A DNA stretch of 64,000 nucleotides, taken from Myxococcales bacterium. Its GTDB lineage: Bacteria > Myxococcota > Myxococcia > Myxococcales > Myxococcaceae. Below, piece after piece: positions 2,118-54,601 of this stretch. The stretch spans positions 8,368 through 72,367 of the forward strand of contig JAUYSO010000017.1 in the NCBI GenBank assembly GCA_030696265.1, written 5' to 3'. The notes under the pieces are model-generated. The model was not told where the DNA came from, did no database searches, and saw only the letters and a program-made list of their open reading frames with translations. The translations under genes were made by a program, and so were the position numbers. Position 1 is the stretch's first letter. Each line of letters starts with the position of its first letter.

Positions 2118-2170
2118 GGGCGGCACCATAGCGTGCGCCGACCGGGAGGCGATGAGTGTCGGGAGCGGCT

Positions 2171-3433: not shown

Positions 3434-3468
3434 CGCTGTGTGTGTCGGGAGCGGCTAAGAACCCGGGG

Positions 3469-4713: not shown

Positions 4714-4897
4714 GGCTGCTCCCACGTTGCGTCGGAGCGCGTTCGACGACGTCGTCTGCCTGACGCCTGGTGTTCTCCGCGGCGGTCCTCGAGACGACGC
4801 GGTGGCGTGACCAGACGCGAGCGCAGCGTGAGTTCGCGCCAGGCATGTCCGCTGACGGGGAGACGATGAGTGTCGGGAGCGGGTAAGAACCCGAGGC

Positions 4898-6181: not shown

Positions 6182-6735
6182 CCCTCCTCGACTTGCTCGC
6201 CGGCCACCACCCTCTCGATGACAAGGAGCGCGTCGATCTCGCGTCGATGCGCGACTTCGCGAAGAGCCTCGCCGAGCCGTTCTCACGCGCCCAGTGGCCC
6301 GCGCACTTCACCGGCAGCGCGGTGGTGGTGACGCCCGATGGCACGCGCGTCTGCCTGGTCCTGCACGCGAAGCTCCACCGCTGGCTGCAGCCCGGTGGGC
6401 ACGCCGACCCGGCAGACGATGGCTCGATGGAAAGGACGGCGCTGCGAGAGGCGCGTGAAGAGACGGGAATGGACGTCGCCCTGCACCCTCACGCACCCCG
6501 GCCGCTCGACGTCGACGTGCACGTCATCCCCGCGCGCAAAGCCGACCCGGAGCACCGTCACCTCGACGTGCGCTACCTCGTCGTCGCGCACAACCCCGAT
6601 GCGCTGAAGCACGACCCGAGCGAGTCGCATGGCGCGCAGTGGCTGAGCTGGGAGGACGCCCTGGCCCGCGCCGATGAAGCCCCGCTGCGTCGAATGCTCG
6701 AGAAGGCGCGCGCGGTCGTCACGCGAGATCGATGA
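6178..6735 (+). CDS. NUDIX hydrolase
   Basis: Nudix box GGHADPADDGSMERTALREAREETGMDV fits Gx5Ex7REUxEExGU. ATGA start/stop overlap with paralog C. Confidence 0.85.
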   Translation: MTLLDLLAGHHPLDDKERVDLASMRDFAKSLAEPFSRAQWPAHFTGSAVVVTPDGTRVCLVLHAKLHRWLQPGGHADPADDGSMERTALREAREETGMDVALHPHAPRPLDVDVHVIPARKADPEHRHLDVRYLVVAHNPDALKHDPSESHGAQWLSWEDALARADEAPLRRMLEKARAVVTRDR

Positions 6736-26399: not shown

Positions 26400-27047
26400 A
26401 TGAATCCAACGCTTCGACTCTCGACGCTCGTCCTCTTCATTTCTGCCTGTGGTCCCGTCATGACGGAGCCCGATGCCGGGAGCACCGGCGGTGGTCTCGC
26501 TGCAGGCGGGGGCTCGGCAGGTGGCTCGGCGGCGGGTGGCTCGGCGGCGGGTGGCTCGGCGGCAGGTGGCTCGGCGGCGGGCGGCTCCGCGGCAGGCGGC
26601 TCCGCGGCAGGCGGCTCGGCGGCTGGTGGCTCGGCGGCTGGCGGCTCGGCGGCAGGTGGCTCGGCGGCAGGCGGCTCGGCAGCGGGTGGCTCGGCAGCGG
26701 GTGGCTCGGCAGCAGGTGGCTCGGCGGCAGGTGGCGCTGCCGGAGGGGGAACCGCACAAGTCAGCTTCATGTCGCAGGTCGCACCGATTCTCGCGGCACG
26801 ATGTAGCACCTGCCATTCGACCGACACCGTCGCCGCAGCCAACACCTACGTGCGCGGCACGAGCTCATGCGGTGGCCCGCGCCTCGTCGCGAGCGACGCC
26901 ACGGCGAGCTTGCTCTTCCAGAAAGTCGCAGGGACGCAGACGTGTGGCGGACGTATGCCCCGAGGCTGCTCGGGCAATTCCTGTCTGCCTCAAGTGCAGA
27001 TCGACCTCATTCGCGACTGGATCAACGCCGGCGCGCCCAACAACTAG
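26400..27047 (+). CDS. lipoprotein with (GGSAA)n linker and a C-terminal c-type-heme (CxxCH, PSCyt1-like) domain
   Basis: Lipobox LFISACG. About 16 GGSAAGGSAA repeats. VAPILAARCSTCHS has a CxxCH heme-binding motif. Confidence 0.55.
   Translation: MNPTLRLSTLVLFISACGPVMTEPDAGSTGGGLAAGGGSAGGSAAGGSAAGGSAAGGSAAGGSAAGGSAAGGSAAGGSAAGGSAAGGSAAGGSAAGGSAAGGSAAGGSAAGGAAGGGTAQVSFMSQVAPILAARCSTCHSTDTVAAANTYVRGTSSCGGPRLVASDATASLLFQKVAGTQTCGGRMPRGCSGNSCLPQVQIDLIRDWINAGAPNN
26496..26750 (+). repeat. intragenic tandem repeat, 15-nt period (ggctcggcggcgggt), about 16 copies
   Basis: Near-perfect 15-mer iterations encoding GGSAA. Confidence 0.85.
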
Positions 27048-30478: not shown

Positions 30479-32786
30479 CGTGCCTTCAATTCGAGTGATG
30501 TTCCTGGTGGCGGCCGTCGCGGCCGTGTCGTGTACCCCGCCCGTCGACATGCCCACCGACGCCTGCAAGGGCCGCGTGGCCGGAGACCTCGTCATCACCG
30601 AGCTGATGCTCGACCCCGAGGGCACCGACACAGGCGCCGAGTGGATCGAGATCTTCAACACCCTCGGCACGCCGATCGACCTGCGCGGCTACACCATCAC
30701 CTACCGGCAAGGCACCTCGACGGCGAAGTCGCACACCGTTCGTGCCTCGGTGCAGGTGCCGGCCCGCGGCTACCTCGCGCTCGGTGACGTGCGCTCGGGC
30801 CCCAACCCCTCGTGGATTGGCTACAGCTACGGAGACGATCTCGGCGCGCTCAGCCAGACCTCAGGCACCGTCGCCATTCGCTGCGGCATGACGGCCATCA
30901 ACGAGTACAGCTACTCGCGCGCCGCGCGCTCGGGCCGCTCCCGCATGCTCGGCGGTGGCGTCGACCCCGATGCCTCGCGCGTCTCGAACGAGGCCAACTG
31001 GTGCGACACGCCCACCTCGACCGAGTACACGCCGCGCGGCTACGGCACGCCCGGCGGCCCCAACCCGCAGTGCGCTCCCGAGGCGATGGTCGGCACCTGC
31101 CTGCAGAACGGCATGCCCCGCCCCATCGTCGCGGCCGAGGCCGGAGACCTGCTCATCACCGAGGTCATGGCGAGCCCGAGGGCCGTCACCGACACCCTCG
31201 GCGAGTGGATCGAGCTCTACGCCACCACCGACGTCGACCTCAACGGCCTCGCCATCGCGACGAGCACCAGCCGCGCCACGCTCACCTCTCCTGAGTGCCT
31301 CACGGTGCCGGCGCAGTCGTACAACATCATCGCGCGCTCGAACGACGCCTTCGTCAACGGCGGCCTGCCGAAGGCCGTGGCGACGTTCTCGGTCAGCCTC
31401 TCGTCGGCCAATGAGCGGCTGCGGCTGGTGCGTGGTGATGCCGGCATCGACGACGCCACCTTCTTCGCCTCGCAGACCGGCGTCTCATGGCAGGTGCGAC
31501 CCGAGCTGCTCGCCAACCCCGACGAGATTCTGCCCAGCCTCAACGACACCCCTGACTCGTTCTGCAAAGCCAGCTCAGCGTGGATGGGGAGCGCGGGCGA
31601 CTTCGGAACGCCCGCCGCGGCCAACGGAGCCTGCGCTGCGGACTCTGGCGTCGTGGTGGTGCCCGACGGCGGCCTGCCGACCTTCGACTGCAACGCCATC
31701 GACGGGGGCGACCTCGTCGTCACCGAGGTGATGGTCGACCCGCCCAGCACCGACACCGGCCTCGAGTGGTTCGAGCTCTTCAACACGACGGCCGCGCCCA
31801 TCGACCTCGCGGGCCTCACGCTCACCTACCGCCAGGGCGCGACGACCCCCAGGTCCCACGTCGTGCGCAGCTCCGTCATCGTGCCGCCGGGCCAGGCGGT
31901 CGCGGTCGGCGACGTGCGCACCGGGCCGAACCCCGCGTGGATCAGCTACGCCTACGGCGCAGACCTGGGCGCGTTGAACAACTCGTCGGGCACCGTGGGC
32001 GTTCGCTGCGACACGAAGGTCGTCGGTGAATACACGTGGGTGCGCACGGCGCGCTCCGGGCGAAGCCGCATGCTCGGTGGGCCTGTGACGCCCACGACTG
32101 CGCTCGCTGCGGTCGAGGCCAACTGGTGCGACACGCCGACCAGCAGCGAGTACACGCCTGGCAGCTCTGGCACCCCTGGCGCGGCGAACCCGGTCTGCGC
32201 TCCAGAAGCCATGACGGGCACCTGCCTCGACAACGGCACCCCGCGGCCCATCGTCGCCGCAGAGCCGGGCGACCTCGTCATCACCGAGGTGATGCCAAGC
32301 CCGTCGGTCAGCACCACGGTCGGAACCTGGTTCGAGGTGTACGCCACGACCGACGTCGACCTGAATGGCCTCTCGGTCGCCAACGGCGCAGGCACGCGCA
32401 ACACCATCGCCTCGTCGAACTGCCTGCGCGTGCCGGCGACGACGTACGCGATTCTCGCGCGCAGCGCGAACGCGTTCCTCAACGGCGGGCTACCGCCCCC
32501 CATCGCCACCTTCACCATCGGCATCAGCAGCTCGGGCAACGAGCTGCTGCGGCTCTTCCGGGGTGACGCCGGCATCGACGAGATCTCGTTCTTCCGGTCG
32601 ACGAGCGGCAAGTCATGGCAGGTGCCCGGTGAGCTGCTGATCGACCCGATGCTCATCACGCCCGCCATCAACGACGTGCCGGCGAACCTGTGCATCGCGC
32701 CGAACCGTTTCGCCACCGACGCCGGGCCCGGCGACTACGGCAGCCCGACCGAGCTGAACCCCCTCTGTGACGGCGGCGCGCCCTGA
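30471..32786 (+). CDS. lipoprotein of four lamin-tail-domain (LTD)-like repeats, arranged as an internal ~330-aa tandem duplication
   Basis: ATG 30471 has GAGG 4 nt upstream. Lipobox AAVAAVSCT. LTD signatures LVITELMLDPEGTDTGAEWIEIFN...IDLRGYTI, LLITEVMASP...EWIELYATTDVDLNGL, LVVTEVMVDPPSTDTGLEWFELFN, LVITEVMPSP...WFEVYATTDVDLNGL. Confidence 0.7.
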   Translation: MTNVPSIRVMFLVAAVAAVSCTPPVDMPTDACKGRVAGDLVITELMLDPEGTDTGAEWIEIFNTLGTPIDLRGYTITYRQGTSTAKSHTVRASVQVPARGYLALGDVRSGPNPSWIGYSYGDDLGALSQTSGTVAIRCGMTAINEYSYSRAARSGRSRMLGGGVDPDASRVSNEANWCDTPTSTEYTPRGYGTPGGPNPQCAPEAMVGTCLQNGMPRPIVAAEAGDLLITEVMASPRAVTDTLGEWIELYATTDVDLNGLAIATSTSRATLTSPECLTVPAQSYNIIARSNDAFVNGGLPKAVATFSVSLSSANERLRLVRGDAGIDDATFFASQTGVSWQVRPELLANPDEILPSLNDTPDSFCKASSAWMGSAGDFGTPAAANGACAADSGVVVVPDGGLPTFDCNAIDGGDLVVTEVMVDPPSTDTGLEWFELFNTTAAPIDLAGLTLTYRQGATTPRSHVVRSSVIVPPGQAVAVGDVRTGPNPAWISYAYGADLGALNNSSGTVGVRCDTKVVGEYTWVRTARSGRSRMLGGPVTPTTALAAVEANWCDTPTSSEYTPGSSGTPGAANPVCAPEAMTGTCLDNGTPRPIVAAEPGDLVITEVMPSPSVSTTVGTWFEVYATTDVDLNGLSVANGAGTRNTIASSNCLRVPATTYAILARSANAFLNGGLPPPIATFTIGISSSGNELLRLFRGDAGIDEISFFRSTSGKSWQVPGELLIDPMLITPAINDVPANLCIAPNRFATDAGPGDYGSPTELNPLCDGGAP

Positions 32787-41879: not shown

Positions 41880-43517
41880 GTGCAAGCCTCAGCGGGTCAG
41901 CGCGCGCTCGAAGAACACCTGATGCGCGACGCGCCCCAGCGCGAGGCGTCGGTCGCACGCTTCATGACGGTCGCGAGCAGTCTGTCGGCCGTCGCTGCGT
42001 TCCTGCTCGGGCCCCTCATCGGCTGGACGCTCGGCGTGGTGCTGGGCGTCGTGCTTTCGGTCCTCGCGGTGTACTTCTTCATCCAGGACCGCGCGCTGCG
42101 CCGCGGCTGGTACCGGCCCGAGCTGCGCTGGGTGAACGTGGCCGTCGAGGTCTCGGCGCCGTCGATTCTCTTCCTCGCCGACAGCCAGCTCTACAGCGTC
42201 GAGTATGCGCTGACCGCGCCGCCGCTCGTGATGTGGGCGACGCTCGTCGCGCTGTCGGGGTTTCGCGGCAGCCGCGCGCTCTCCATCGGCGCTGGCACCA
42301 TCGCGGCGGTCGAGTATGCGTTGCTCTATCTCCTCGTGGCGTGGCCCCGGCTCTCGCCCGAGGCGCTGGTGACGCTCCAGCCCGGCCTCTTCGCGGTGCG
42401 GGTCCTGCTCCTCTTCTCATCGGGCATCGTGACAGCCGTCTTCGTCGGGCACTTCAACCGGCGCGCGGCCGAGGCGCTGACCGCGGTGCGCTTGAAGGAC
42501 GTGATGGGCAAGTACCTGCTGCACGAGCGCGTGGGCTCGGGCGGCATGGCCGAGGTCTTCAGGGCGACGTACAGCCCCGAGGGCGGCTTCGAGAAGACGG
42601 TGGCGCTGAAGAAGATTCTGCCGTCGCTGGGCGCGAACGCCGAGTTCCTGCGCTTGTTCCGTCTCGAGGCCGAGCTGTGCAGCCGGCTCAATCACCCGAA
42701 CATCGTGCAGGTGCTCGACTTCGGCCGGCACAGCGACTCGTTCTTCCTCGCCATGGAGTACGTCGACGGGCTCTCGCTCAAGCGCGTGCTCGACGTGTAC
42801 CAGGGTGTCGGGTTGCCGCTGCCGGCGGTGACGACTCTGGCCATCGAGCTGTGCCAGGCGCTCGACTACGTGCATCGGCGTGTCGGCCCCGATGGCCGGC
42901 CGATGAACCTCATTCACCGCGACCTGAACCCACCGAACGTTCTCTTGTCGGTGCTGGGTGAGGTGAAGGTGGCCGACTTCGGCATCGCGCGCGCGGCCAC
43001 CCGCGCCGACCACACGCAGGTCGGCATCGTGAAGGGCAAGCCGGGCTACCTCGCTCCGGAGCAGGCGGCCGGTGAGCCCATCGATGGGCGCGTCGACCTC
43101 TTCGCGCTCGGCGTGACGCTGCACGAGGCGTTGACGGGGGCCCGCCTCTTCCCCACGGGAGACGACCCGGTGTCGCTGCACGCGGTCTTCTCGATGCCGA
43201 TTCCCCGGCCGTCAGCGCTGCGACCCGAGGTCCCTGAGGCGCTCGACACCGTGGTGATGAAGCTGCTCGAGCGTGACCTGGCGAATCGCACGCGCTCGGC
43301 CCGTGAGGCGTTGGATGGCTTCCTCGCGGTGAGCGGGCCTGGCGCGGCGTACCCGAGTGGGCAGAAGGAGCTGGTCGCGTCGGTGAAGCGTGCAGCGGCC
43401 GAGTGGCCCGAGCTCGCGCGCCGGGCTGCGGAGCACGCGATGGCGCAGGCGAGCACCGACGTCGCGTCGAGCCCGGTGGGAGCGACGGACGCGAACAAGC
43501 CGCTGTTGCCGTGGTGA
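41880..43517 (+). CDS. membrane-anchored Ser/Thr protein kinase (N-terminal multi-TM domain, C-terminal kinase)
   Basis: Four to five N-terminal hydrophobic helices. Kinase motifs GSGGMAEVFRA, VALKKI, HRDLNPPNVLL, DFG, APE, DLFALGVTLHEALTG. Confidence 0.85.
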   Translation: MQASAGQRALEEHLMRDAPQREASVARFMTVASSLSAVAAFLLGPLIGWTLGVVLGVVLSVLAVYFFIQDRALRRGWYRPELRWVNVAVEVSAPSILFLADSQLYSVEYALTAPPLVMWATLVALSGFRGSRALSIGAGTIAAVEYALLYLLVAWPRLSPEALVTLQPGLFAVRVLLLFSSGIVTAVFVGHFNRRAAEALTAVRLKDVMGKYLLHERVGSGGMAEVFRATYSPEGGFEKTVALKKILPSLGANAEFLRLFRLEAELCSRLNHPNIVQVLDFGRHSDSFFLAMEYVDGLSLKRVLDVYQGVGLPLPAVTTLAIELCQALDYVHRRVGPDGRPMNLIHRDLNPPNVLLSVLGEVKVADFGIARAATRADHTQVGIVKGKPGYLAPEQAAGEPIDGRVDLFALGVTLHEALTGARLFPTGDDPVSLHAVFSMPIPRPSALRPEVPEALDTVVMKLLERDLANRTRSAREALDGFLAVSGPGAAYPSGQKELVASVKRAAAEWPELARRAAEHAMAQASTDVASSPVGATDANKPLLPW

Positions 43518-43534
43518 CTCGCTCGGAGTGAGGG

Positions 43535-43924
43535 CTACTGCTGCAGCTCGAGCTCGCGGAGCGCCGCGGCGACGTCGATGCGCCGGTCGGGACGGAGCGT
43601 GATGACGAGATCGTCTCCGTCGGAGCGCACGTCGAGGCTGACGCCGATGGTGCCGCTGCGAACGAGCGCGCGGCGCTGCCACGCGCGCCAGCGGCCATCG
43701 GGCTTCATGGCTTCGAGCTGACGGAGCCACGCCTCTGGCGTGCCGCCGGGCATGACGCGCCAACGGAGCATCGCCTCGGTGCAGACCTCGAGGCGCTCGC
43801 CGGGCGCGTCACTCAGCGCTGTCAGCTCCCAGCCCTTCCACGGCTCGCACGGCGTCACCCGCGAACAGGCAGGCAGCAGCAGCGCCAGCGCCACCCACGC
43901 CGAAGCTGGTCGACCGCGACCCAT
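43535..43924 (-). CDS. hypothetical lipoprotein
   Basis: Start MGRGRPASAWVALALLLPACS (lipobox) inside ORF 43535..44095. Confidence 0.55.
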   Translation of the reverse strand: MGRGRPASAWVALALLLPACSRVTPCEPWKGWELTALSDAPGERLEVCTEAMLRWRVMPGGTPEAWLRQLEAMKPDGRWRAWQRRALVRSGTIGVSLDVRSDGDDLVITLRPDRRIDVAAALRELELQQ

Positions 43925-44010
43925 GCCGAGAGACGCTACCCCGAAGACGATTCGCCTCGCTGAATACACGCCACCGCCCTTCTCCATCGAGCGCGTGACG
44001 CCGTGGTGAG
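43885..44010 (+). repeat. left copy of a ~125-bp dispersed direct repeat (partner at about 50300-50425)
   Basis: gccgaagctggtcgaccgcgacccatgccgagagacgctaccccgaagacgattcgcctcgctgaatacacgccaccgcccttctccatcgagcgcgtgacg versus the pepN start region. Confidence 0.75.
43923..44009 (+). pseudogene. orphan duplicated 5' fragment of pepN (28 codons, then a stop)
   Basis: MPRDATPKTIRLAEYTPPPFSIERVTPW*. About 88% nt identity to the start of the intact pepN at 50347. Confidence 0.7.
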
Positions 44011-44036
44011 TCTGCGCGCCGGGCACCTTCGACGCA

Positions 44037-46439
44037 CTACGGCCACTGCACCCGCACGCCGGCTTGCACCGCAAGCGGAGCCAGCGGCCTCGCACCGAAT
44101 GGGCGCCGCGCCACCACCACCTGCTGGTTCGTCAGGTTCATGCCCTGCGCGTAGAACTGAAACAGCCCCACCCGGTAGCTCGCCGTCGCGTCGAGCAACA
44201 CCCGCGCCGGCACCGTCGGCTGCGAGAGGCCGTCGCCCGCCTCCTCGACGACGCCACCAGAGAACTCCGCGCCCACCGACAGCGACAGCGCGTCGCGGTT
44301 GAAGATGAGCCGCGCCGAGCCCTGGTGCATCGGCACGTACGGAATGAGGTCGCCCGCCCGCACCACGCCCCAGATGGGGTTCGACGAGGTGAAGTCGGAC
44401 AAGAACCGCGCGCTCGTCAGGGTGTACGTCACCTGAGGCACCAGCTCGATGTCGGCCGGGAGCGGAATCACGACCGACGCCAGGGCCTCGAGCCCGACGA
44501 TGCGCGCCGCGCCCCCGTTGAACTGCCGGTTGAGCGCGTCGTCGACGCAGCCCGTGCTGCCGGTGCACTCCCCGGTGATGTTCGAGTACTCGCTCCAGAA
44601 CCCCACCAGCTCGAGCCGACGACGCCGCGACGGCGACCGAACGCCCAGCTCGCCATGCAGCGCCCGCTCGGGCCGCACGTCCGCCGACTGGCCGGGCGTC
44701 ACGGGGCTGAAGCCCTGGTGCACACCTCCAAAGACGTTGAGGCCCAGCGGCAACGCCACCACCGCGCCCGCGCCGAAGAGCGGCACCGCCTGGAGCGACC
44801 GCGACGTCTTTCCCGAGAGGTCGTCCTTGAACACCGTGTCGATGAGCTCGACGCGCATGCCCGGCGACACCAGCAGGCGCCCCCACGTCATGGTGTCATG
44901 CAGGTGCAGCGCCCCGGCCCGCGAGAGCCCCCGGTTGAGCGCGTCCTGCGCCACCGGCAGGGCGTCAGGCTCGAGCGCGCCGCCGACGACTGCGTAGCCG
45001 GTGGCGGTGTGGTTGCGCCGAACCTCGTCGTGGTGGAACCGCAGGCCCGCTTCGAGCTCGTGCTGCACTGGCCCCGTCGTCAGCTTCGCCACCGCCTCGG
45101 CCTGCACCCCCTGGCTCACCAGGGTGCGCGCGTTGTTCAGCACGATGAGCGACTCGTCGAGGCTGCTCGAATCGACCGCCCCGCGCAGCACGCCGAGGTA
45201 CTGACCGTCGAGTCCTCCGCGCACCGGCTGCACCAACAGCTCGTACAGGCCCGGGCCCCGCCGGAAGCGATCGAGCCGGTTCCACGCGCGGAACATCGAG
45301 TGCCGGTACGCCGTCGCAGACAACGACAACCACGACGCCGGTTGGGCGCTCCAGCGGGCCGTCACCGAGAGCCGGTTCCACTCCATCCGGTCGAGCGCCG
45401 TCGTCGCGTACCGGCGGTTCGGCGTCGCCTCGAAGTCCTCGGTCGACACGCCCAGGTACGTCTCCCGGCTGTCCTCGAGCGCGAGCGTCGCCTTCACCTC
45501 GAGCTGCTGCTGCCACGCGTCGTTGGGGCTCACGCGCCCCTTCAGCATCACCTCGCCGCGCTCGAAGCCGGTGTTGCCGCCGCGGTCGAGCACCTTGAAC
45601 CCCTCGTCGCGCAGGAACACGCCCTCGGCGAGCAGGCCCCAGCGCTCCGTGCCCACCGCGGCGACGCCGTGCACCCGCGCCTGAAAGCGGCTGCCTCCAG
45701 CGACGTCGAGCTTGAAGAGGTGCTCCTTCGGCACCTCGCGCGTGCGCAGGTTGATGGCGCCGCCAATCGTCTGGGGACCGAACCGAATCGCCGCTGGCCC
45801 TTTGTAGACCTCGAGCCCCACCATTCGGGTGACGAGCGGAAAGTAGTACGCGGCGGGAGCGGAGTACGGCGCCGGCGTGAGCAGCACCCCGTCTTCCATC
45901 AGCGTGACCTTCGCGCTCCGATCGGGGTTCGCGCCGCGCAGGCCGATGTTCGGCCGCAGGCCCAGCCCATCTTCTTCACGAAAGTACACGCCAGGCACCT
46001 CACCCAGGACCCGGTGAATGTCGTTGAGTTCGCGGCGCTCGAGGTCTTCCTCGCCGAGCGTCACCGCGCTGCCGGTGATGCGCCGAACGTCAGGCCCCCG
46101 CTGCCCCACCACCCTGGTGGTGAAGCCCACTCCGGCGTCGGCGGCCGGCGCCGCTTCGTCCTCGGCGTCCCACACGCCACCATCGGGGCCAGCCACCGTG
46201 CCGGCACGGGCTTGCTCTCCCGCGTCGAAGCCGCCACCGTCGGGATCAGCCGCCGTCACGCCACGCGGTGCCGCAGCTTCATCCGCTTCGAAGCTGCCAC
46301 CGTCGGCGAGCGGCGGCAGCTCGCTCACTCGCGTGCGGGACTCCCAGTGGCCGCGAGGTTCGTCGAACGAGCCTCCGTCAGCCGAACCGGTCGGCGTCTG
46401 GGCGACGAACAACGACACGACGACCGGCCACCACATCAC
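44037..46439 (-). CDS. TonB-dependent outer-membrane receptor
   Basis: Signal peptide. N-terminal acidic DGG(S/G/V)(F/W)DAE repeats. Plug-domain motifs (VTLGEEDLERRELNDIHRVLGEVPGV, ...TLMEDGV). About 600-aa barrel. Confidence 0.8.
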   Translation of the reverse strand: MMWWPVVVSLFVAQTPTGSADGGSFDEPRGHWESRTRVSELPPLADGGSFEADEAAAPRGVTAADPDGGGFDAGEQARAGTVAGPDGGVWDAEDEAAPAADAGVGFTTRVVGQRGPDVRRITGSAVTLGEEDLERRELNDIHRVLGEVPGVYFREEDGLGLRPNIGLRGANPDRSAKVTLMEDGVLLTPAPYSAPAAYYFPLVTRMVGLEVYKGPAAIRFGPQTIGGAINLRTREVPKEHLFKLDVAGGSRFQARVHGVAAVGTERWGLLAEGVFLRDEGFKVLDRGGNTGFERGEVMLKGRVSPNDAWQQQLEVKATLALEDSRETYLGVSTEDFEATPNRRYATTALDRMEWNRLSVTARWSAQPASWLSLSATAYRHSMFRAWNRLDRFRRGPGLYELLVQPVRGGLDGQYLGVLRGAVDSSSLDESLIVLNNARTLVSQGVQAEAVAKLTTGPVQHELEAGLRFHHDEVRRNHTATGYAVVGGALEPDALPVAQDALNRGLSRAGALHLHDTMTWGRLLVSPGMRVELIDTVFKDDLSGKTSRSLQAVPLFGAGAVVALPLGLNVFGGVHQGFSPVTPGQSADVRPERALHGELGVRSPSRRRRLELVGFWSEYSNITGECTGSTGCVDDALNRQFNGGAARIVGLEALASVVIPLPADIELVPQVTYTLTSARFLSDFTSSNPIWGVVRAGDLIPYVPMHQGSARLIFNRDALSLSVGAEFSGGVVEEAGDGLSQPTVPARVLLDATASYRVGLFQFYAQGMNLTNQQVVVARRPFGARPLAPLAVQAGVRVQWP

Positions 46440-46440
46440 G

Positions 46441-47751
46441 TCACCTCACCGCGACCGATTCTGGCGAAGACGCCCGCCGTGGCGACTCGTTCAGCGCCTG
46501 CCGAAGGTTCTCGAGCGTCATCAGGTCGACCTCGGGCTTGAAGAGCAGCCTCGGCGCGCGCCGATTCAACGAGACCCTCGCGTCGACGAACACCTCGACG
46601 GGCCGGCCGAGCTTCTGCGCCAGGTCTCGCCCGAGGTGCCTCCCAAGCTGCACGATGAGGTCCGGCTGGCCGCTCATCTCGTTCGCCTGCCGCGCCGTCA
46701 GCACGTCGCGAGGGTCAATCTGCCACTCGCGCGTCTCCCCCTTCGCCCGCACCCGGTAGCTCACCGCGCCGTTCTTCTCGCGCAGCATCACCTTCCACGA
46801 CCAGCGCATGCCCTGTTCGTCCCACAGCACGTCGTCGCCGAGCAGGTGCGAGCGCAGCGGGAAGAGCGCCTGGAAGGCGACGTACGCCGCGAGGCCCACC
46901 GCCAGGGCCGCACCGAGCGGCCGACCGCCCTGCGCCACGGCCACCGGGCGCCACCCGAGCCGCCGCGGCCACGACGGGTCGAGGAACAGCGTTGCGTTCA
47001 GCGTCATCAGGAAGGGAAAGATGCCGATGTCGAAGAGCGCGTGCGTCGCGCCGTGGAACACGAGCACCGCCACCAGCGCGAAAGGCCGGGTTCGCCGCGC
47101 CGACAACCAGAACGGAATCGTCAGGTCGTAGAGACAAGCGGCCCAGCTCCCCAGGAGCGGCGCGAACGGCAGCGCGAGCAACGGGCCCAGCACGGGCAGG
47201 CCCCGGTTCGCCGCGAACCACGTCTCGAGCGGCTGGCCGTGCAGCAGCCAATCGGTGTTCACCTTGGCGAGGCCGGCGTGCACGTAGACGACGCCCACCT
47301 GAAAACGAAGGAGCCACAGCGCCCAGCGCGGCAGCGAGGGGCCGTCGAGCGGGAGCACCGTCAGCAGCGCCCCGAGCAGGAACGCGAGGTAGTCGTGGTT
47401 CAGGTAGTTGGTGACGTCGTACAGCTTGAGCCACCCGAAGCAGGCGAGGAAGACGACACCGCCCAGCCGGCGCGCCATGCCAGCCCCGAAGCCAAGCACC
47501 ACGGCGCCGACCGCGCCCACCGCGAGCGTCCACGGCACCAGCGCCTTCGGGATGACGGGAACGAAGGCGAACGCCTCGTACTCGAACCGGAACGTCGGCT
47601 CGAGGAACAGCGGCCCCGTCCACCCCGTCAGGTGGAGGCGAACGAGGGCTCCGGCGAGGAGCAGCCCGATGAGGGCGCGGTACACCCGAACCGACGCGCC
47701 GTCTTCCGGGGCGCCGGCCCAGCCCGCGAGCTGCTCCCACCGCGCGCGCAT
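46441..47751 (-). CDS. HTTM-domain (vitamin-K-dependent-carboxylase-like) integral membrane protein
   Basis: RALIGLLLAGALVRL...FRFEYE, NYLNHDYLAFLLGALL and WLLRFQVGVVYVHAGLAKVNTDWL match HTTM signatures. Its start overlaps the stop of the upstream gene by 1 nt. Confidence 0.7.
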   Translation of the reverse strand: MRARWEQLAGWAGAPEDGASVRVYRALIGLLLAGALVRLHLTGWTGPLFLEPTFRFEYEAFAFVPVIPKALVPWTLAVGAVGAVVLGFGAGMARRLGGVVFLACFGWLKLYDVTNYLNHDYLAFLLGALLTVLPLDGPSLPRWALWLLRFQVGVVYVHAGLAKVNTDWLLHGQPLETWFAANRGLPVLGPLLALPFAPLLGSWAACLYDLTIPFWLSARRTRPFALVAVLVFHGATHALFDIGIFPFLMTLNATLFLDPSWPRRLGWRPVAVAQGGRPLGAALAVGLAAYVAFQALFPLRSHLLGDDVLWDEQGMRWSWKVMLREKNGAVSYRVRAKGETREWQIDPRDVLTARQANEMSGQPDLIVQLGRHLGRDLAQKLGRPVEVFVDARVSLNRRAPRLLFKPEVDLMTLENLRQALNESPRRASSPESVAVR

Positions 47752-48881
47752 CAGAAGTTGGTCCGGAAGCGCACCATCTCATCGGCGGTGAAGCCGTAGA
47801 CGGTCTGCAGCTGCATGTTCGCTGCGAGCAGCGCGTCGATGTCCGGCGGCACCGTCGTCAGCAACTGGAACGCCGTCGAGCCCGCGAGCGAGGGGATCTT
47901 CATCGCCGTGAGCACCTGGTCGATCTGCGCGTCGCTGATGCGCCGGTTCGCCTGCGGCACGGCCTTGAGCCCGAGGAAGAACGAGGCGCCCTCCCCGAGG
48001 TCGTGCATCGCCGAAGACTTCTTCGCCACGTCGGCCATCGGGTCCTGCAGCTTCGTCGCCGCCGAGTTCACGTAGAAGACGACGGTCGCCGCGAGCATCT
48101 CCTCCCACTCGCTCTTGATGGTCTCGAGCGCGGCCGTGCGCTCGGCGGTGCAGCTGGCCGAACCGGCCGCGAGCCGCGCGCGCACGAATGCATCTCGCAT
48201 CGTCGTGTACTGCCCCGTCATGCCCTGCGGCGTGCGGCGCTTGGCGTACTTCGCCATCAGCTCGTCGCGCCCGGGCGCCGTGGTGTCGTTCTGCGGGAAG
48301 TTCGGCGTGGCACCGTAGAGGGCGAGCAGCTGGTCGATGGACTCCGGCGTCGTCGCCGTCGGCATGCGCTTGACCGCCTCGCCGTAGAACAGCGCGCCGT
48401 AGAGCCCCTTGTCGATGACCTGCCGCAGGTCGACGCCGCGCTCACTGTAGATCCACTGGCTGGTGCCCGAGCCGTAGATGCCGCCGCTCATCGGAGGGTC
48501 TATCGGCGTCCACACGCGGCCCTGGGAGGCGAGGAAGGCGGTGAAGGTCTCCTGGACCACTGGCTGGAAGCCCGCCGCGGTGAGGCTCGAGAGCGACGGC
48601 GTGCCGGCGTTGAAGAGCTCGTCGAGCTGCATGCGCGTCACCGTGAAGCCCGCGTCGAGCTCGGCGGCCCGCATCGGCGCGTTGAGCGCGTTGAGCTTGC
48701 CGAGGAGGCTGATCTCGGCGGCCGCGTTCGTCGCGAAGCCCGCGTCGGGGTAGGCGCCGGTGAGCGTGACGGTGCAGCCGGTCGAACCGCCGCCTGCGCC
48801 ACCACCGCCATCGAGACGCATGTCCATCGGGCCACAGGCCGCGACGGGAAGAACGATCAGGCTCAGAAGAACTCGATGCAT
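47751..48881 (-). CDS. TonB-receptor-associated lipoprotein, tentatively imelysin-like
   Basis: Lipobox VLPVAACG after MHRVLLSLI. About 376 aa. Sits between the HTTM gene and a second similar lipoprotein, the usual context of imelysin-family genes. Family call is tentative. Confidence 0.4.
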   Translation of the reverse strand: MHRVLLSLIVLPVAACGPMDMRLDGGGGAGGGSTGCTVTLTGAYPDAGFATNAAAEISLLGKLNALNAPMRAAELDAGFTVTRMQLDELFNAGTPSLSSLTAAGFQPVVQETFTAFLASQGRVWTPIDPPMSGGIYGSGTSQWIYSERGVDLRQVIDKGLYGALFYGEAVKRMPTATTPESIDQLLALYGATPNFPQNDTTAPGRDELMAKYAKRRTPQGMTGQYTTMRDAFVRARLAAGSASCTAERTAALETIKSEWEEMLAATVVFYVNSAATKLQDPMADVAKKSSAMHDLGEGASFFLGLKAVPQANRRISDAQIDQVLTAMKIPSLAGSTAFQLLTTVPPDIDALLAANMQLQTVYGFTADEMVRFRTNF

Positions 48882-48910
48882 GGTGCCTGTGTGACAAGGG
48901 TGCACTGCGC

Positions 48911-50110
48911 TCAGTCGTTGTCGCCGGCCCCCTCCCTGGGGACCTTGAGCGACAGCGTGGTGACGAACTGCGACTTGAAGAGGTCGGTGAAGGCCTTGAC
49001 GGCGGCGTGGAGCGCCTGGAGCCCGTCGAGGTCTTCGGTGGCGGCGACCGCGACCGGACGCTGGAGCGCGCGCGCGGCGGCCACTGCTGCGTCGAGCTTC
49101 AGGAGCATCTCGTCCTTCAGCGCGCCGGCTCCACGCTCGACGAGCAGGTCGTCGAAGCCCACCGCGCTCGAGGTCTGCTCGAACGAGCCGGTGAAGATGG
49201 CGCGCGCCATGACGAGGTTCTCGACCAGGGCCCTGGTCGACAGCCCGGCGCGCGGCGACTCGGCGAGCGCGGGACACGACTGCGCCATGCACGCCGGGGT
49301 GATGCCGGCTGGTGCGCCCAGCTTGAAGTCCTTCACCCAGCGGTCCGCATAGAAGAGCCCTGCGTAGACGTCGTCGAGGCCGTCCTTCGGCGTGCGCCAG
49401 ACCGAGCCCATGGCCCCGGCCTGCGTGAGCTTGTCGCCGAAGCCACCCGGGGCGCTCCACCCATCACGTGCGCGCCGCGCGGTCGCCTCGAGGTGCCGCG
49501 CCACGCCGAGCGCCCAGGCCTTGCGCCGCTCCTGGAGCGCAGGCGAGCCCGCGAGCATGGCCCAGCTGCCGTTGGTGTTGATGGTGGCGTTCGGCAGGCA
49601 CGCATTCGCCGTCGACTGGTTGAAGAGCAGCTCCTCGAGCACCGCGAGGCCCTTCGAGGTGACGAGCGCCGTCGCGAAGTAGGCGTCGTCAGGCGTCGTG
49701 TTCGCCACCAGCGCCGAGTCGACGCGGCAGAGGTTCGTCGTCGGCCATGAGTAGATCTCGTCTCGCAGCCCTTCACCGGCCGTCACCTGCGTCGCCGCGC
49801 CGAGGGGCCCGAGCTGAAGCAACTCGACCCGCTGCCAGGTGAGGAACGCCGTCTCGAACGCCGCCTTCGCCGAGGTGAGCGCCTGCGCGTCTTGCCCTTG
49901 CGCCGCGCGCGCCCAGCCGTCGACCGCCTCACGGAGCGCCGCGAAGTCCGTCACCGTCTTCTCGAGCGCCGGCCGCGCCAGCGCCGTGTCGAACGTCTCG
50001 AGCGCCTGGCGCTGGAGCTGCGCGTCGGAGGGGTTGGGCTTCGGTGGGGGCGTCGTACAGGAGGCCGCGCACCAGATCAGGAGAATATTGAGAACGATTC
50101 GCAAATGCAC
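48911..50110 (-). CDS. TonB-receptor-associated lipoprotein (imelysin-like, tentative)
   Basis: Probable GTG start at MHLRIVLNILLIWCAASC; the 5' coding region is unusually AT-rich. The longer ORF start at 50242 would run into the pepN promoter region. Confidence 0.4.
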   Translation of the reverse strand: MHLRIVLNILLIWCAASCTTPPPKPNPSDAQLQRQALETFDTALARPALEKTVTDFAALREAVDGWARAAQGQDAQALTSAKAAFETAFLTWQRVELLQLGPLGAATQVTAGEGLRDEIYSWPTTNLCRVDSALVANTTPDDAYFATALVTSKGLAVLEELLFNQSTANACLPNATINTNGSWAMLAGSPALQERRKAWALGVARHLEATARRARDGWSAPGGFGDKLTQAGAMGSVWRTPKDGLDDVYAGLFYADRWVKDFKLGAPAGITPACMAQSCPALAESPRAGLSTRALVENLVMARAIFTGSFEQTSSAVGFDDLLVERGAGALKDEMLLKLDAAVAAARALQRPVAVAATEDLDGLQALHAAVKAFTDLFKSQFVTTLSLKVPREGAGDND

Positions 50111-50299
50111 AATCGCTAGATAGCTCCAACGTGCGGGGCTTGCCGATGAAAAAATCTCACCGCGCCGACAGGTGAGCTTCTGGGCGGGACCACTGCGCGC
50201 CCCGAGCCTCAGAAGTCGGCGCGATCGACGTGAGCGGCGCACCCTCAGTGGTCGGTCTCGATTCGTCGCGCGAGGGCTTCCACCGTTCAGCTGGCGTCG

Positions 50300-50425
50300 C
50301 CCGCACTGCCAGCACCGCCTGGGCCGAAGCTGGTAGACCCCGCGCCATGCCGAGAGACGCGACCCCGAAGACGATTCGCCTCGCCGAATACACCCCGCCG
50401 CCGTTCTCCATCGAGCGCGTGACGC
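50300..50425 (+). repeat. right copy of the ~125-bp dispersed direct repeat (covers the pepN start)
   Basis: See the left copy at 43885..44010. Confidence 0.75.
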
Positions 50426-53019
50426 TCACCTTCGACCTCGAGCTCGACCACACCGAGGTCGAGTCGGAGCTCGTCATCGTCCGGCGCGCGGGCGTCCAGG
50501 GCCCCGTGCTGCTCGACGGCGACCACGACGCCGAGGGCTCGGGACAGCTGCTGTCCATCTCCATCGACGGCGCGACGCTCCCCGAGTCGGCCTACGCGGT
50601 GACCGATGGAGGGCTGACGCTGCACGCGCCGCCCGACCGCTTCACGCTGAAGACGCGCCGGCGCCTGACGCCATCGAAGAACAAGAGCCTCGAGGGCCTC
50701 TACGCATCGTCGAGCAACCTCTTCACGCAGTGCGAGGCCGAGGGCTTTCGCAAGATCACCTGGTACGCCGACCGCCCCGACGTGATGAGCGTCTTCACCG
50801 TCACGCTGCGCGCCGACCCCGAGCGCTTCCCCGTGCTGCTCAGCAACGGCAACAAGGTGAGCGAGCGCGACGAAGTCATCGACGGGAAGAAACGCCGCGT
50901 CGCCGTGTGGCACGACCCGCACAAGAAGCCCTGCTACCTGTTCGCCGTCGTCGCGGGGAACCTGGTGGCGCGCTCCGACGCGTTCACCACGATGAGCGGC
51001 AGGCAGGTGGCGCTGAACGTCTGGGTGCGCGCGCACGACCTCGACCAGACCGCGCACTGCATGGACAGCCTCAAGAAGTCGATGCGGTGGGACGAGACGC
51101 GCTTTGGCCGGGAGTACGACCTCGACGTCTTCAACCTCGTCGCTGTGTCGGACTTCAACATGGGCGCGATGGAGAACAAGGGCCTCAACGTCTTCAACAC
51201 CAAGTTCGTGCTCGCGCGGCCCGACACCGCGACCGACGTCGACTTCGCGGGCATCGAGGGCGTCGTCGGCCACGAGTATTTCCACAACTGGTCCGGCAAC
51301 CGCGTCACGTGTCGCGACTGGTTTCAGCTCTCGCTGAAGGAGGGCTTCACGGTCTTCCGCGACCAGGAGTTCTCGGCCGACGTCGGCTCGCGCTCCGTCA
51401 AGCGCATCGAAGAGGTGCGGAGGCTGCGCAGTTTGCAGTTCCCCGAAGACCAGGGCCCGACCGCGCACCCGGTTCGACCCGACAGCTACGTCGAGATCTC
51501 GAACTTCTACACGGTCACCATCTACGAGAAGGGCGCCGAGGTCGTCCGGATGTACTTGACGCTGCTCGGGCACGAGCTCTTCCGCAAAGGCACCGACCTG
51601 TACTTCAGCCGGCACGACGGTCAGGCGGTGACGACCGACGACTTCCTCGCGTGCATGGCCGAGGTCAGCGGGCGCGACTTCACGCAGTTCTCGCGGTGGT
51701 ACTCGCAGGCCGGCACGCCGAAGGTGACGTCGAAGGGCTCGTGGGACGCGGCGAAGGGCTCGTGGACGCTGACGCTCACGCAGACGGTCCCTCCGACGCC
51801 GGGGCAGAGTGAGAAGCTGCCGATGCTGGTGCCGGTGGTGACGTCGCTCCTCGGCAAGGACGGCAAGCCGGTGCCGCTCACCGTCGATGGCGTCGCGCGT
51901 GGCACCGAGTGCGTGCTCGAGCTGACGAAGGCGGAGCAGCGCTTCGTGTTCTCGGGGCTGTCGCACGCTCCGGTGCCGTCGCTGCTGCGTGGCTTCTCGG
52001 CGCCCATCATTCTCGAGACCGACGACGACGAGACCGCCCTGCTCTTCCGCCTCGCGCATGACGATGACGCGTTCAACCGGGTCGAGGCTGGTCAGGAATT
52101 GTTCCTGCGTCACCTGTTCGCGAGCATCGCGGCGATTCAGAGCGGGAAGGAGCCCATCGCTCCGGCAGCCCAGCTGGTGGACGCCGTGAAGACGGCGCTC
52201 GCGACCGCGCTGACGCCTGCTGGAGATCCCGCGCTGCTCGCCCTCGCGCTCAGCGTTCCCGGCATCGACGTCATTGGTGACCGCCTCGCCTGGGCCGACT
52301 ACGCGAGCGCGCACCGGGCCCGTGAACACCTCGTGACGACGCTCGCGACGGCGCTGCTGCCGCTCGTCACGCAGGTCGACGCGCACCTCTCGAAGTCACT
52401 CGATGGCGTCGCGTATCGCTTCGCGCCTGACGACGTGGGCCGTCGCAGCCTTCGCAACGTGATGGTGGCGTGGCGTGCACGGCTGGCCGATGGCGAAGCG
52501 CAAGTCCTCGCGCACCTTCGCCGCGCTGGCTCGATGACCGACACGCAGGCCGCGCTGTCTCTGCTCTCAGCGACGACCAGCGCTGCACGCGACGAGGCGT
52601 TCAAGACCTTCTACGCGCAGTGGAAGGGTGAAGCGCTGATGGTCGACAAGTGGTTCGCGCTCCAGGCGACGAGCACGAGGCCGCAGACGCTCGATGACGT
52701 GATGGCGCTGATGAAGCACGAGGCGTTCACGCTCGAGAACCCGAACCGCGCACGTTCGCTCATCGCGGCGCTCGGCATGAGCAACCCGCTCCGCTTCCAC
52801 GAGGCCAGCGGCCGCGGCTACGCGTTCCTCGGTGAGCAGGTGCGCACGCTCGACGTGTTCAACCCGCAGATCGCCGCGCGCATGCTGACGCCGCTGACGC
52901 GATGGAAGCGGCAGGACCCACCGAGGCAGGCGCTGATGAAGCAGGAGCTCCAGCGCATTCTCGACCGCGAGGGCTGCAGCAAGGACGTGTACGAGATTGC
53001 GACCAAGTCGCTCGCGTAG
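50347..53019 (+). CDS. pepN: aminopeptidase N (M1 family)
   Basis: GAMEN motif. Zinc site HEYFHNW...E. Length ~890 aa. Confidence 0.95.
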   Translation: MPRDATPKTIRLAEYTPPPFSIERVTLTFDLELDHTEVESELVIVRRAGVQGPVLLDGDHDAEGSGQLLSISIDGATLPESAYAVTDGGLTLHAPPDRFTLKTRRRLTPSKNKSLEGLYASSSNLFTQCEAEGFRKITWYADRPDVMSVFTVTLRADPERFPVLLSNGNKVSERDEVIDGKKRRVAVWHDPHKKPCYLFAVVAGNLVARSDAFTTMSGRQVALNVWVRAHDLDQTAHCMDSLKKSMRWDETRFGREYDLDVFNLVAVSDFNMGAMENKGLNVFNTKFVLARPDTATDVDFAGIEGVVGHEYFHNWSGNRVTCRDWFQLSLKEGFTVFRDQEFSADVGSRSVKRIEEVRRLRSLQFPEDQGPTAHPVRPDSYVEISNFYTVTIYEKGAEVVRMYLTLLGHELFRKGTDLYFSRHDGQAVTTDDFLACMAEVSGRDFTQFSRWYSQAGTPKVTSKGSWDAAKGSWTLTLTQTVPPTPGQSEKLPMLVPVVTSLLGKDGKPVPLTVDGVARGTECVLELTKAEQRFVFSGLSHAPVPSLLRGFSAPIILETDDDETALLFRLAHDDDAFNRVEAGQELFLRHLFASIAAIQSGKEPIAPAAQLVDAVKTALATALTPAGDPALLALALSVPGIDVIGDRLAWADYASAHRAREHLVTTLATALLPLVTQVDAHLSKSLDGVAYRFAPDDVGRRSLRNVMVAWRARLADGEAQVLAHLRRAGSMTDTQAALSLLSATTSAARDEAFKTFYAQWKGEALMVDKWFALQATSTRPQTLDDVMALMKHEAFTLENPNRARSLIAALGMSNPLRFHEASGRGYAFLGEQVRTLDVFNPQIAARMLTPLTRWKRQDPPRQALMKQELQRILDREGCSKDVYEIATKSLA

Positions 53020-53032
53020 TTCGGTGCGCCCA

Positions 53033-53947
53033 ATGCGGACCGCGCTTGCATCGCTCCTGCTGTTGGCCTCGTGCCGGTGGTGCGAATCGAAGGCCGTCTC
53101 GTCGAGCTTCGTCGCGCAGACCGGCCTGCCGGCCGAACTTGAGCGGCAACTTGGCGCGCCGGAGCTCGAACGGCAGCGCTTCAGCGACCTCTGCGTCGAG
53201 GCGATTCACGCCGTCTACCCTGACGCAGGCGTCGTCACTCTCGAGCCGTTGACCTTTCAGCTCAGTCACCCCGACGTCGCGATGATCAGCTTCGACAACC
53301 CCTGGCGGGCGAAACCAGACGCGCGCGCGGCGGACGTTTGGAACCAGCTGCGAAAGATTGAGGCAGTGCTCGCCTCCTTCGGTCAACTGGGCACCAGGGA
53401 GCAGGTCGTTCCGCTTCTGAGAGGAAAGAGCACCTTGCCCGATGGAGGCACTGAGTTTGCGGGCAATGGTGAGCCATGGGTTGGCGACCTTCGTCTGGTC
53501 TACATGTTCAACAGGCCCGAGGTGTTCACCCCGGTGACCGACGACGACCTCACCCGATTGGCGCTGAGCCGACCCCAGCTGCAGGCGCTCGCGCTTCGGA
53601 ACCTGCGGGCCCTGGCCTCGCCCATCGAGAAGGTCCAGATTCGCAATCCGCTCGAGGGGAACATCACCGAAGACCGGATCTGGATGGTGAGGATTCCATC
53701 CGCGGGCGGCTACTTCGAGACCAGCGTGCTCCTGCTCGACGAATACTGGGCCGCGCAGGAAATGGAGCTCGGAAAAGGTCTGGTGGTCGCGACTCCTACG
53801 CGAGACCTTCTCTTTCTGACGCTGGCTTCGAATGCGGACGATGTCCGCCGGCTACGGGCAATCGCTCAAGACGCTGCGGCGAACTACGCTCACCCCGTCT
53901 CGGGCGCCCTGCTGACCCGAATCAACGGCGCGTGGCAGCCATTCTGA
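53033..53947 (+). CDS. hypothetical lipoprotein
   Basis: Start MRTALASLLLLASCRWC (lipobox) inside ORF 52997..53947. Confidence 0.55.
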   Translation: MRTALASLLLLASCRWCESKAVSSSFVAQTGLPAELERQLGAPELERQRFSDLCVEAIHAVYPDAGVVTLEPLTFQLSHPDVAMISFDNPWRAKPDARAADVWNQLRKIEAVLASFGQLGTREQVVPLLRGKSTLPDGGTEFAGNGEPWVGDLRLVYMFNRPEVFTPVTDDDLTRLALSRPQLQALALRNLRALASPIEKVQIRNPLEGNITEDRIWMVRIPSAGGYFETSVLLLDEYWAAQEMELGKGLVVATPTRDLLFLTLASNADDVRRLRAIAQDAAANYAHPVSGALLTRINGAWQPF

Positions 53948-54019
53948 ACGCGGACCGCGGATTCGACGAGTGATCGGCTCCTTTCGTGCTTCCAAGAGTA
54001 TCCACGAGCGGGACCCCGA

Positions 54020-54499
54020 GTGATGAACGCGAAGAGACCTTCAGGCAAGGTGAAGCCGAAGCCCGCACGCAAGGCGACGGCACGCAAGTCCATGAAGCCC
54101 GTGAAGCTGCTCTCGGGCGGCAACCCACAGATCGCGAAGGGTGACGGTGACGCGCCCGTGAGGGCGTACATCGCTGCGTTGCCAGGTTGGAAACGCGACC
54201 TCGCAGCGCGCCTCGACGCGCTCATCGTGCGGAGCGTGCCCACCGTACGCAAAGCCGTGAAGTGGAACTCGCCGTGCTACGGAGTCGAAGGCCACGGCTG
54301 GTTCCTCGGCGTTCACGCCTTCACGAGGTACCTCAAGCTGGCCTTCTTCCGCGGCACATCGCTGCGACCGATGCCGCCGGGAGAGAGCAAGACGCCCGAG
54401 ACGCGGTACCTCGACCTCCACGAAGACGACCCAATCGACGAAGCGCAGCTCGCGAGGTGGTTCAAGCAGGCGGCTGCGGTGCCGGGCTGGACGCCGTAG
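54020..54499 (+). CDS. DUF1801 (YdhG-like) domain protein
   Basis: KWNSPCY...HAFTRYLKLAFF is DUF1801-like. Lys-rich N-terminal tail. Confidence 0.6.
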   Translation: MMNAKRPSGKVKPKPARKATARKSMKPVKLLSGGNPQIAKGDGDAPVRAYIAALPGWKRDLAARLDALIVRSVPTVRKAVKWNSPCYGVEGHGWFLGVHAFTRYLKLAFFRGTSLRPMPPGESKTPETRYLDLHEDDPIDEAQLARWFKQAAAVPGWTP

Positions 54500-54601
54500 C
54501 CACAGACGTGCTGCCCCTGAAACCACGGCTCGCCTCGTCTGAACGCTGTTGACTCATGCGTCCGTCGAGGCGAACACGTCGACACCTCAGGAGGCCGCAC
54601 C

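Follow-up and report, generated by a model that had tools for sequence, protein, structure and literature searches.

How a complete operon came to stand between two genes whose start codons overlap in related genomes is the question raised by the locus described here. The stretch of DNA which we analysed, hereafter the window, comprises 64,000 nucleotides (nt) of contig JAUYSO010000017.1 from a Myxococcales bacterium (GenBank assembly GCA_030696265.1). Within it a 123-nt direct repeat, made up of the 5' ends of a small lipoprotein gene and of the aminopeptidase N gene pepN, brackets a four-gene operon encoding a TonB-dependent receptor, an HTTM-domain membrane protein and two lipoproteins. We found that in relatives the lipoprotein gene and pepN lie back to back without the operon, and that positions 44002-50302 of the window (6301 bp) are an insertion accompanied by a 123-bp duplication of its target. 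The redundant halves of the duplication have since decayed, and the route by which the operon arrived was most likely independent of a recombinase.

An empty site and a duplicated junction

The two copies of the repeat lie at 43879-44001 and 50303-50425, with a start-to-start spacing of 6424 nt. They align over 123 nt without a gap and are identical at 107/123 positions (87.0%), as determined by a repeat finder, pairwise alignment and direct count; BLAST matches them to each other with E = 2e-38 and the longest identical runs are 23, 22, 16 and 12 nt. A first-pass annotation, made from the sequence without database searches, had described a repeat of about 125 bp and 88% identity at this locus, and a proper pairwise alignment of both regions bears this out with the coordinates slightly shifted. 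In that alignment the right edge of the repeat is sharp, falling between 44001 and 44002 and between 50425 and 50426, and the left edge lies at 43879/50303. An extension of the right copy past 50303 (a further 27 nt, TPAERWK versus TPCEPWK, with an 18-nt deletion) was tried and rejected, its local alignment score of 20 being below the shuffle mean of 21. The repeat contains the first 45 nt of the lipoprotein gene on the minus strand and the first 78 nt of pepN on the plus strand.

We compared the junction to that of relatives, defined as contigs encoding homologues of the lipoprotein and recovered by homology search. In the closest of these (L086, L087 and L088) and in the distant ones L081, L082, L085 and L089, pepN and the lipoprotein gene are immediate neighbours in divergent orientation, 5-59 nt apart as called, and the receptor operon lies between the two genes in none of the seven. 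The sequence of L086 runs straight from the lipoprotein gene via CATG into pepN. By BLAST, window positions 43400-44001 match L086 928-326 at 91.7% and window positions 50303-50750 match L086 448-1 at 94.0%; both flanks overlap in L086 at 326-448, which is exactly 123 nt. An empty site reconstructed by joining window positions 43700-44001 to 50426-50700 aligns ungapped over 577/577 nt to L086, L087 and L088, with 92-93% identity, and is 71-76% identical to the distant relatives (L081-L085, L089, L090). Because the flanks overlap on 123 nt in the empty site, 44002-50302 is an insertion and the 123 nt are a duplication of its target. Both parts of the history which the first-pass annotation had suggested are therefore seen in the relatives: the lipoprotein gene and pepN stand back to back in every one recovered without the island, and the overlap of the window flanks in L086 gives the extent to which the junction was duplicated.

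The features of the junction and its flanks are the following:

41880-43517, plus strand: Ser/Thr protein kinase gene (Pfam Pkinase, E = 1.4e-36), the left-flank synteny anchor, outside the insert
43535-43924, minus strand: intact small lipoprotein gene, 129 amino acids (aa), from the list of open reading frames (ORFs) and identical to the NCBI-called protein P0001
43879-44001, no strand: left repeat copy, with the live lipoprotein 5' end and the dead pepN 5' end
43923-44009, plus strand: pepN stub of 28 codons and a stop, a pseudogene fragment with the translation MPRDATPKTIRLAEYTPPPFSIERVTPW
50303-50425, no strand: right repeat copy, with the dead lipoprotein 5' remnant (50303-50348, minus strand) and the live pepN 5' end; identical in L095, a second metagenome-assembled genome (MAG)
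50347-53019, plus strand: intact pepN, encoding an aminopeptidase N of 890 aa (Pfam Peptidase_M1_N, Peptidase_M1, DUF3458 and DUF3458_C)

A single CATG contains both start codons, that of the lipoprotein gene and that of pepN, in a head-to-head overlap; it lies at 43922-43925 in the left copy, 50346-50349 in the right copy and 402-405 in L086. This CATG is shared by the window and its closest relatives, the called gaps of 5-59 nt applying to the distant ones. We took the ATG within it as the lipoprotein start because the length of the signal peptide (MGRGRPASAWVALALLLPAC in the window) fits across homologues. The first 45 nt of the intact lipoprotein gene fall within the left copy, and a degenerate form of the same start stands at the right copy (MARGLPASAQ... 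versus the intact MGRGRPASAW...), as the first-pass annotation had read it. It had likewise recognised the left copy as a 28-codon pepN stub and the right copy as the true start of pepN, and we found the stub, MPRDATPKTIRLAEYTPPPFSIERVTPW followed by a stop, at 43923-44009 and the pepN start at 50347.

The lipoprotein itself has no family match in Pfam or NCBIfam. Its homologues (n = 12) have 55-85% identity, and the lipobox cysteine and a PCEPW motif are invariant across them. The kinase gene adjoins the lipoprotein gene in L086, L087 and L095 as well as in the window. A scan of genome contigs with full-length pepN returned, among the matches listed, only proteobacterial loci of about 50% identity, which were of no use for synteny.

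The head-to-head overlap of the two starts implies that the promoters sit inside the coding sequence of the partner gene or that the transcripts are leaderless, and the 123 nt would on this basis contain the promoters of both genes. A sigma-70 promoter scan and a terminator scan of both junctions found nothing. The insertion has left 112 nt between the receptor gene and the lipoprotein gene, which follows it downstream in the same orientation; no terminator-like site was detected in this interval, so the lipoprotein gene may be co-transcribed with the operon by read-through.

Decay of the redundant halves

The occupied structure was found in two further assemblies. In L092, a Logan assembly, it is 100% identical, and in L095 (GCA_030693825.1) it is the same with 98.1% identity over 14.1 kb. 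The pepN stub has decayed further in L095, where its ATG has become ATT and where there is a 1-nt insertion and another substitution. This decay, together with the shared structure, indicates that the stub is a decaying remnant and not a maintained small ORF.

The two repeat copies differ at 16 positions, which we polarised by comparison with L086, L087 and L088. The dead lipoprotein remnant carries derived changes at 7/46 nt and the dead pepN stub at 3/79 nt, with 2 in each of the live halves; the two adjacent sites at 43882-43883 have ambiguous polarity in this count. Taken together the dead halves have diverged at 10/125 sites (0.08). Divergence at four-fold sites between the window and L086/L087 is 0.15-0.19, or approximately 0.085 per lineage. 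As the divergence of the dead halves matches this per-lineage neutral divergence, the duplication appears to have happened once and to be old, of about the age of the split from the empty-site relatives. The pattern fits a single old duplication followed by neutral decay of the redundant halves.

The ambiguous sites are also worthy of description in their own right. At 43882-43883 the live left copy has GC, as do L087 and L088, and at the corresponding 50306-50307 the dead right copy has CT, as does L086. This pattern could be due to homoplasy, to allelic recombination that postdates the insertion or to one copy having a different origin.

The first-pass annotation had also proposed that the repeats are a substrate for deletion of the island by homologous recombination. 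The identical runs of 23 and 22 nt make this possible, and no deletion variant was observed.

The inserted operon and its other locations

The insert contains the following features, all on the minus strand:

44002-50302, minus strand: insert of 6301 bp, comprising the four-gene operon with 35 nt downstream and 192 nt upstream; absent from L086, L087 and L088, present in L095 and L092
44037-46439, minus strand: TonB-dependent receptor gene (Pfam Plug and TonB_dep_Rec_b-barrel)
46441-47751, minus strand: gene for an HTTM-domain membrane protein related to vitamin-K-dependent carboxylases (Pfam HTTM, E = 9e-52; VKGC_lumenal_dom, E = 4e-34)
47751-48815, minus strand: DUF4856-family lipoprotein gene (Pfam DUF4856, E = 4.4e-9; signal peptide MHRVLLSLIVLPVAAC)
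48911-50110, minus strand: imelysin (Peptidase_M75) lipoprotein gene, the first in the operon (Pfam Peptidase_M75 PF09375, E = 1.2e-21, 78 bits versus a cut-off of 23.5; orthologues P0014-P0041)
50111-50302, minus strand: upstream region brought in with the operon, of which the proximal ~110 nt are common in alignment to orthologous operons elsewhere

These are the four minus-strand genes which had been noticed between the copies, the two lipoproteins now being assigned to the DUF4856 and imelysin families. In NCBIfam the receptor has only generic matches, which are under the curated cut-offs. The automated gene call in L092 puts the start of the DUF4856 gene at 48881.

Orthologous operons were found elsewhere in related genomes. 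Homologues of the imelysin protein have graded identities (100, 84, 84, 81, 73, 68% and so on) within Myxococcales-type MAGs. The four-gene operon adjoins an aldehyde-dehydrogenase gene in L091 and L094, with 82-86% nucleotide identity, and adjoins mevalonate-pathway genes in L093, which comes from the same MAG (GCA_016793095.1) as the empty site L081. The nucleotide match of the window to L091 begins at the imelysin start codon (50110) and continues as far as the receptor stop (44036), with 84-85% identity. The same island without the repeat thus does exist in relatives (L091, L093 and L094), but at other loci, and neither flanking repeats nor pepN-like or lipoprotein-like sequence was found beside the operon in these three. 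Across five genomes of one clade the operon occupies three unrelated chromosomal contexts, with a flanking duplication only at the pepN site, and it appears to relocate repeatedly within the clade. A scan of metagenome contigs with the HTTM protein found distant loci only, the best with 72% identity and the rest with ≤ 53%.

We also compared the composition of the island to that of its flanks, as the first-pass annotation had suggested, and found no difference: the island genes have a GC content of 0.69-0.71 and a GC content at third codon positions (GC3) of 0.90-0.95, versus a GC3 of 0.86-0.92 in the flanks. Since the GC3 is native and the operon occurs at other loci in relatives, the island is, as judged by composition and homology, a relocated operon of the same lineage and not foreign DNA. 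We searched the window for the flanks of a donor locus, using the neighbours of the operon in L091 and L093, and found none; the donor locus lies outside the window.

In alignment, the proximal ~110 nt upstream of the imelysin gene carry the motif AGAAGC ... TTTTTTCAT ... GTGCATTTGCGAAT in all orthologues. The distal ~80 nt of the upstream region and the 35 nt after the receptor stop have no BLAST match. We observed a motif of the form AGAAGC...TTTTTT(T)CAT approximately 45-50 nt before the imelysin start in all orthologues (window 50084-50165 on the minus strand; L091 7040-7110; L093 6870-6990; L094 560-640). It was also observed that the first ~27 nt of the imelysin gene are AT-rich in the orthologues (GTGCATTTGCGAATCGTTCTCAATATT), in a genome of 70% GC; scored by eye, this AT-rich start agrees with the Fur-box consensus at 11-13/19 positions. 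No Rfam family was detected in 43400-50900 at E ≤ 1, and RNA folds of the operon leader in four orthologues were no better than shuffled sequence (z from -1.4 to +0.7).

Elsewhere in the window, a 1.06-kb segment at 53018-54077 (within 52997-54501) contains a 316-aa ORF with no family match and has a GC3 of 0.77, versus ~0.9 elsewhere. It is absent from L095, which has 60 nt in its place, and the next 424 nt are only 82% identical between the two. A recent indel, or a tract of recombination, immediately 3' of pepN is the probable explanation. A second insertion with a long duplication was sought at this indel and no flanking repeat was found. The 123-nt repeat is the sole long dispersed repeat in the window which is neither a tandem array nor a paralogous gene. 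The remaining repeats of ≥ 50 nt are tandem coding arrays or paralogous gene sets; the sites unrelated to the insertion are 10332-10589, 16388-16717, 26445-26794, 2146-6186 and 30621-32647, and the types represented are two 33-nt and one 15-nt tandem coding arrays, three tandem paralogous genes and repeated modules of ~560 nt.

Route of insertion, rival explanations and meaning

We found no integrase, excisionase, transposase or any other gene beyond the four in the 6301-bp insert (ORF list and Pfam), the genes called within ±10 kb in L095 include none with a recorded recombinase family, and no tRNA gene was found in 30000-64000. There are no terminal inverted repeats at the ends of the insert, where the best alignment scores were below the shuffle mean, and the insert ends are unrelated to the target sequence. 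A tandem duplication followed by deletion was considered as a source of the structure and rejected: it needs a second copy of the operon downstream of pepN, and none is present in the window or in the relatives.

The explanation which we consider probable is a single-event insertion of a lineage-native operon, with its 123-bp target duplication, by recombinase-independent repair or a template switch. In the ancestor the small lipoprotein gene and pepN stood back to back with essentially no spacer. One event inserted a 6301-bp copy of the operon, including its own upstream region, at this junction, and the same event duplicated the 123 bp of target, of which 45 nt belong to the start of the lipoprotein gene and 78 nt to that of pepN. 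As a result neither neighbour lost its 5' end or the native sequence directly upstream of it, and the redundant halves have since decayed. These steps are borne out by the data. One event is the simplest account because the edges of the duplication are flush with the insert. Two routes may be envisaged: a break with staggered ends of ~123 nt could have been filled in while an endogenous fragment was captured, in the manner of end joining, or a replicative template switch could have led to synthesis across the operon and a return to the target at a position 123 nt behind that of exit. The first-pass annotation had named replicative insertion and illegitimate recombination as candidate processes, and break repair or a template switch is what we would suggest. 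Selection would keep only those insertions which spared both genes and their upstream sequences, and retention of the event is understandable because an insertion without the duplication would have cut at least one gene from its upstream sequence.

Several points weigh against this explanation. A fill-in of 123 nt is far longer than the usual duplications made by end joining or by transposases, we know of no documented bacterial case of a fill-in of such a length, and a literature search on long bacterial target-site duplications found nothing relevant. No promoter-like site was detected in the 123 nt, so the preservation of promoters stays a supposition. The donor locus was not seen, so the operon may have been copied or moved, with or without microhomology at the junctions. 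The three derived changes in the pepN stub are all synonymous third-position changes, for which the chance is about 1 in 27, and at 50306-50307 the dead right copy agrees with L086 where the live left copy agrees with L087 and L088. The last two are small-number observations, and they would also fit one copy of the repeat having come from a related genome.

That is the expectation if the operon arrived by Campbell-type or site-specific integration of a circle which carried it together with an attP-like segment of ~123 bp restoring the gene end, the recombinase acting in trans or being lost later. Integrative elements with a target inside a gene as a rule bring their own copy of the gene end, and direct repeats flank them after integration. 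The dead halves are exactly the parts which would be element-derived, the stub differs from live pepN by synonymous changes only, as an orthologue from another strain would, and the CT of the lipoprotein remnant is that of L086 and not of the resident copy. The insert nevertheless has no integrase, excisionase or non-operon gene in its 6301 bp or within ±10 kb, and no tRNA gene; the operon stands at L091, L093 and L094 without a pepN-like or lipoprotein-like segment or flanking repeats; its composition is native; and the dead halves have diverged just as far as neutral decay in situ would predict. Formation of the circle would moreover need a prior illegitimate join, which makes this account less parsimonious, and we consider it unlikely. 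A bolder variant is less likely again: the repeats would be the attachment sites attL and attR of a non-autonomous cassette which moves as a circle with a segment restoring the gene starts, using a recombinase in trans, or in a weaker version the operon would be relocated recurrently and without a recombinase, with more than 100 nt filled in and both neighbours spared. The three contexts in five genomes and the synonymous-only changes of the stub are compatible with such a cassette without demanding it. Between these two in probability, and only a little behind the simple circle, is a two-step history in which the 123 bp at the head-to-head junction were first duplicated in tandem and the operon then entered precisely at the joint. 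Tandem duplications of short segments arise commonly, at this junction such a duplication would have made a neutral landing site between the overlapping genes, and the final structure would be the one observed. It would, however, need two independent events at one nucleotide, as both edges of the repeat coincide with edges of the insert, whereas entry at another point of the dead halves would have put the repeats out of line with it, and the tandem duplication is present in 0/7 of the empty-site relatives.

The direction of change could also be reversed, with the island and its repeats ancestral and the empty sites produced by precise deletions. Homologous recombination between the copies, which share identical runs of 23 and 22 nt, would restore a clean junction, and the age estimated for the insertion is close to that of the split from L086 and L087, so loss in those two lineages is conceivable. 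We regard this as very improbable, since the adjacency of the two genes is found in four distant lineages as well (L081, L082, L085 and L089), one of which has the operon elsewhere (L093), and since the derived states of the dead halves are all missing from L086 and L087; even on this account an insertion with duplication would be needed to explain where the repeat came from. Least probable of all, to the point of being negligible, is a chimeric join in the assembly. The window does come from a MAG, and repeats can mislead assemblers, but the same structure recurs in a second MAG, 2% divergent and with private mutations in the left copy, as well as in the Logan assembly, and the copies, at 87% identity, are too diverged to collapse or be mis-joined. 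The further decay of the stub in L095 and the shared structure rule out an artefact for practical purposes. The single-event insertion of a lineage-native operon is thus the explanation which we prefer.

We also compared the structure to known systems. Like integrative islands, it is a multi-kilobase accessory block between direct repeats which hold gene ends, and its empty and occupied sites coexist. Unlike them, it is without an integrase or excisionase, a tRNA target, a compositional signature, extra cargo or an att-like sequence at the other loci, and its repeat is a copy of the target, whereas that of islands is a conserved attachment site. Insertion sequence (IS) elements, transposons and casposons make target-site duplications of 2-15 bp. 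The duplication described here resembles these in being a direct repeat of the target flush with the insert, and differs in its length (123 bp versus 2-15 bp) and in the lack of a transposase and of terminal inverted repeats. In Streptomyces ambofaciens, breaks repaired by non-homologous end joining (NHEJ) were found to have captured endogenous DNA of between 30 bp and 18.8 kb, and fill-in synthesis took place at the ends (Hoff et al. 2018, PMC5869714). The likeness to NHEJ capture is that kilobases of the genome's own DNA have entered a site to which they are neither related nor homologous, and that mobile-element genes are lacking; the orthologous operons elsewhere in relatives, at a divergence similar to that of the flanks, agree with the same-lineage origin of DNA captured in this way. 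The difference is that the fill-in in S. ambofaciens was of a few nucleotides, whereas the locus described here would call for 123 nt at both ends, and that the event described here is natural and old, with a presumed break and presumed enzymes. By this comparison the structure would work most like the break-repair capture of endogenous DNA, as it lacks the defining properties of an island and of a transposon.

As for the cargo, imelysin (Peptidase_M75 or EfeO-like) proteins have been linked to Fur-regulated iron uptake, with an EfeB/DUF1111 peroxidase almost always present (Xu et al. 2011, PMC3143127). The operon resembles imelysin-type iron-uptake operons in that the imelysin lipoprotein is encoded with outer-membrane uptake components. 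It differs from them in its partners, which are the DUF4856, HTTM and TonB-dependent receptor proteins, and no EfeB/DUF1111-type peroxidase is encoded in the operon in the window or in L091, L093, L094 and L095. The combination of imelysin, DUF4856, HTTM and TonB-dependent receptor is not described in the literature which we searched.

The insertion is a fairly ordinary genome rearrangement, the only odd feature of which is a long duplication without mobile-element genes. By itself it opens no new question and overturns no expectation, and its general interest is modest unless the duplication marks a recurrent mechanism. It is a natural example of a whole operon being placed between two genes which have no intergenic space, with neither of them damaged, and one in which the empty site, the occupied site, the dated decay of the redundant halves and the other homes of the operon are visible together. 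It also marks a conserved and uncharacterised four-gene outer-membrane uptake module, the place of which in the chromosome differs within one clade. Should the long duplication be the mark of a particular repair route, such as long fill-in or template switching, it would be relevant to the rearrangement of gene order in large, high-GC genomes which have few classical mobile elements.

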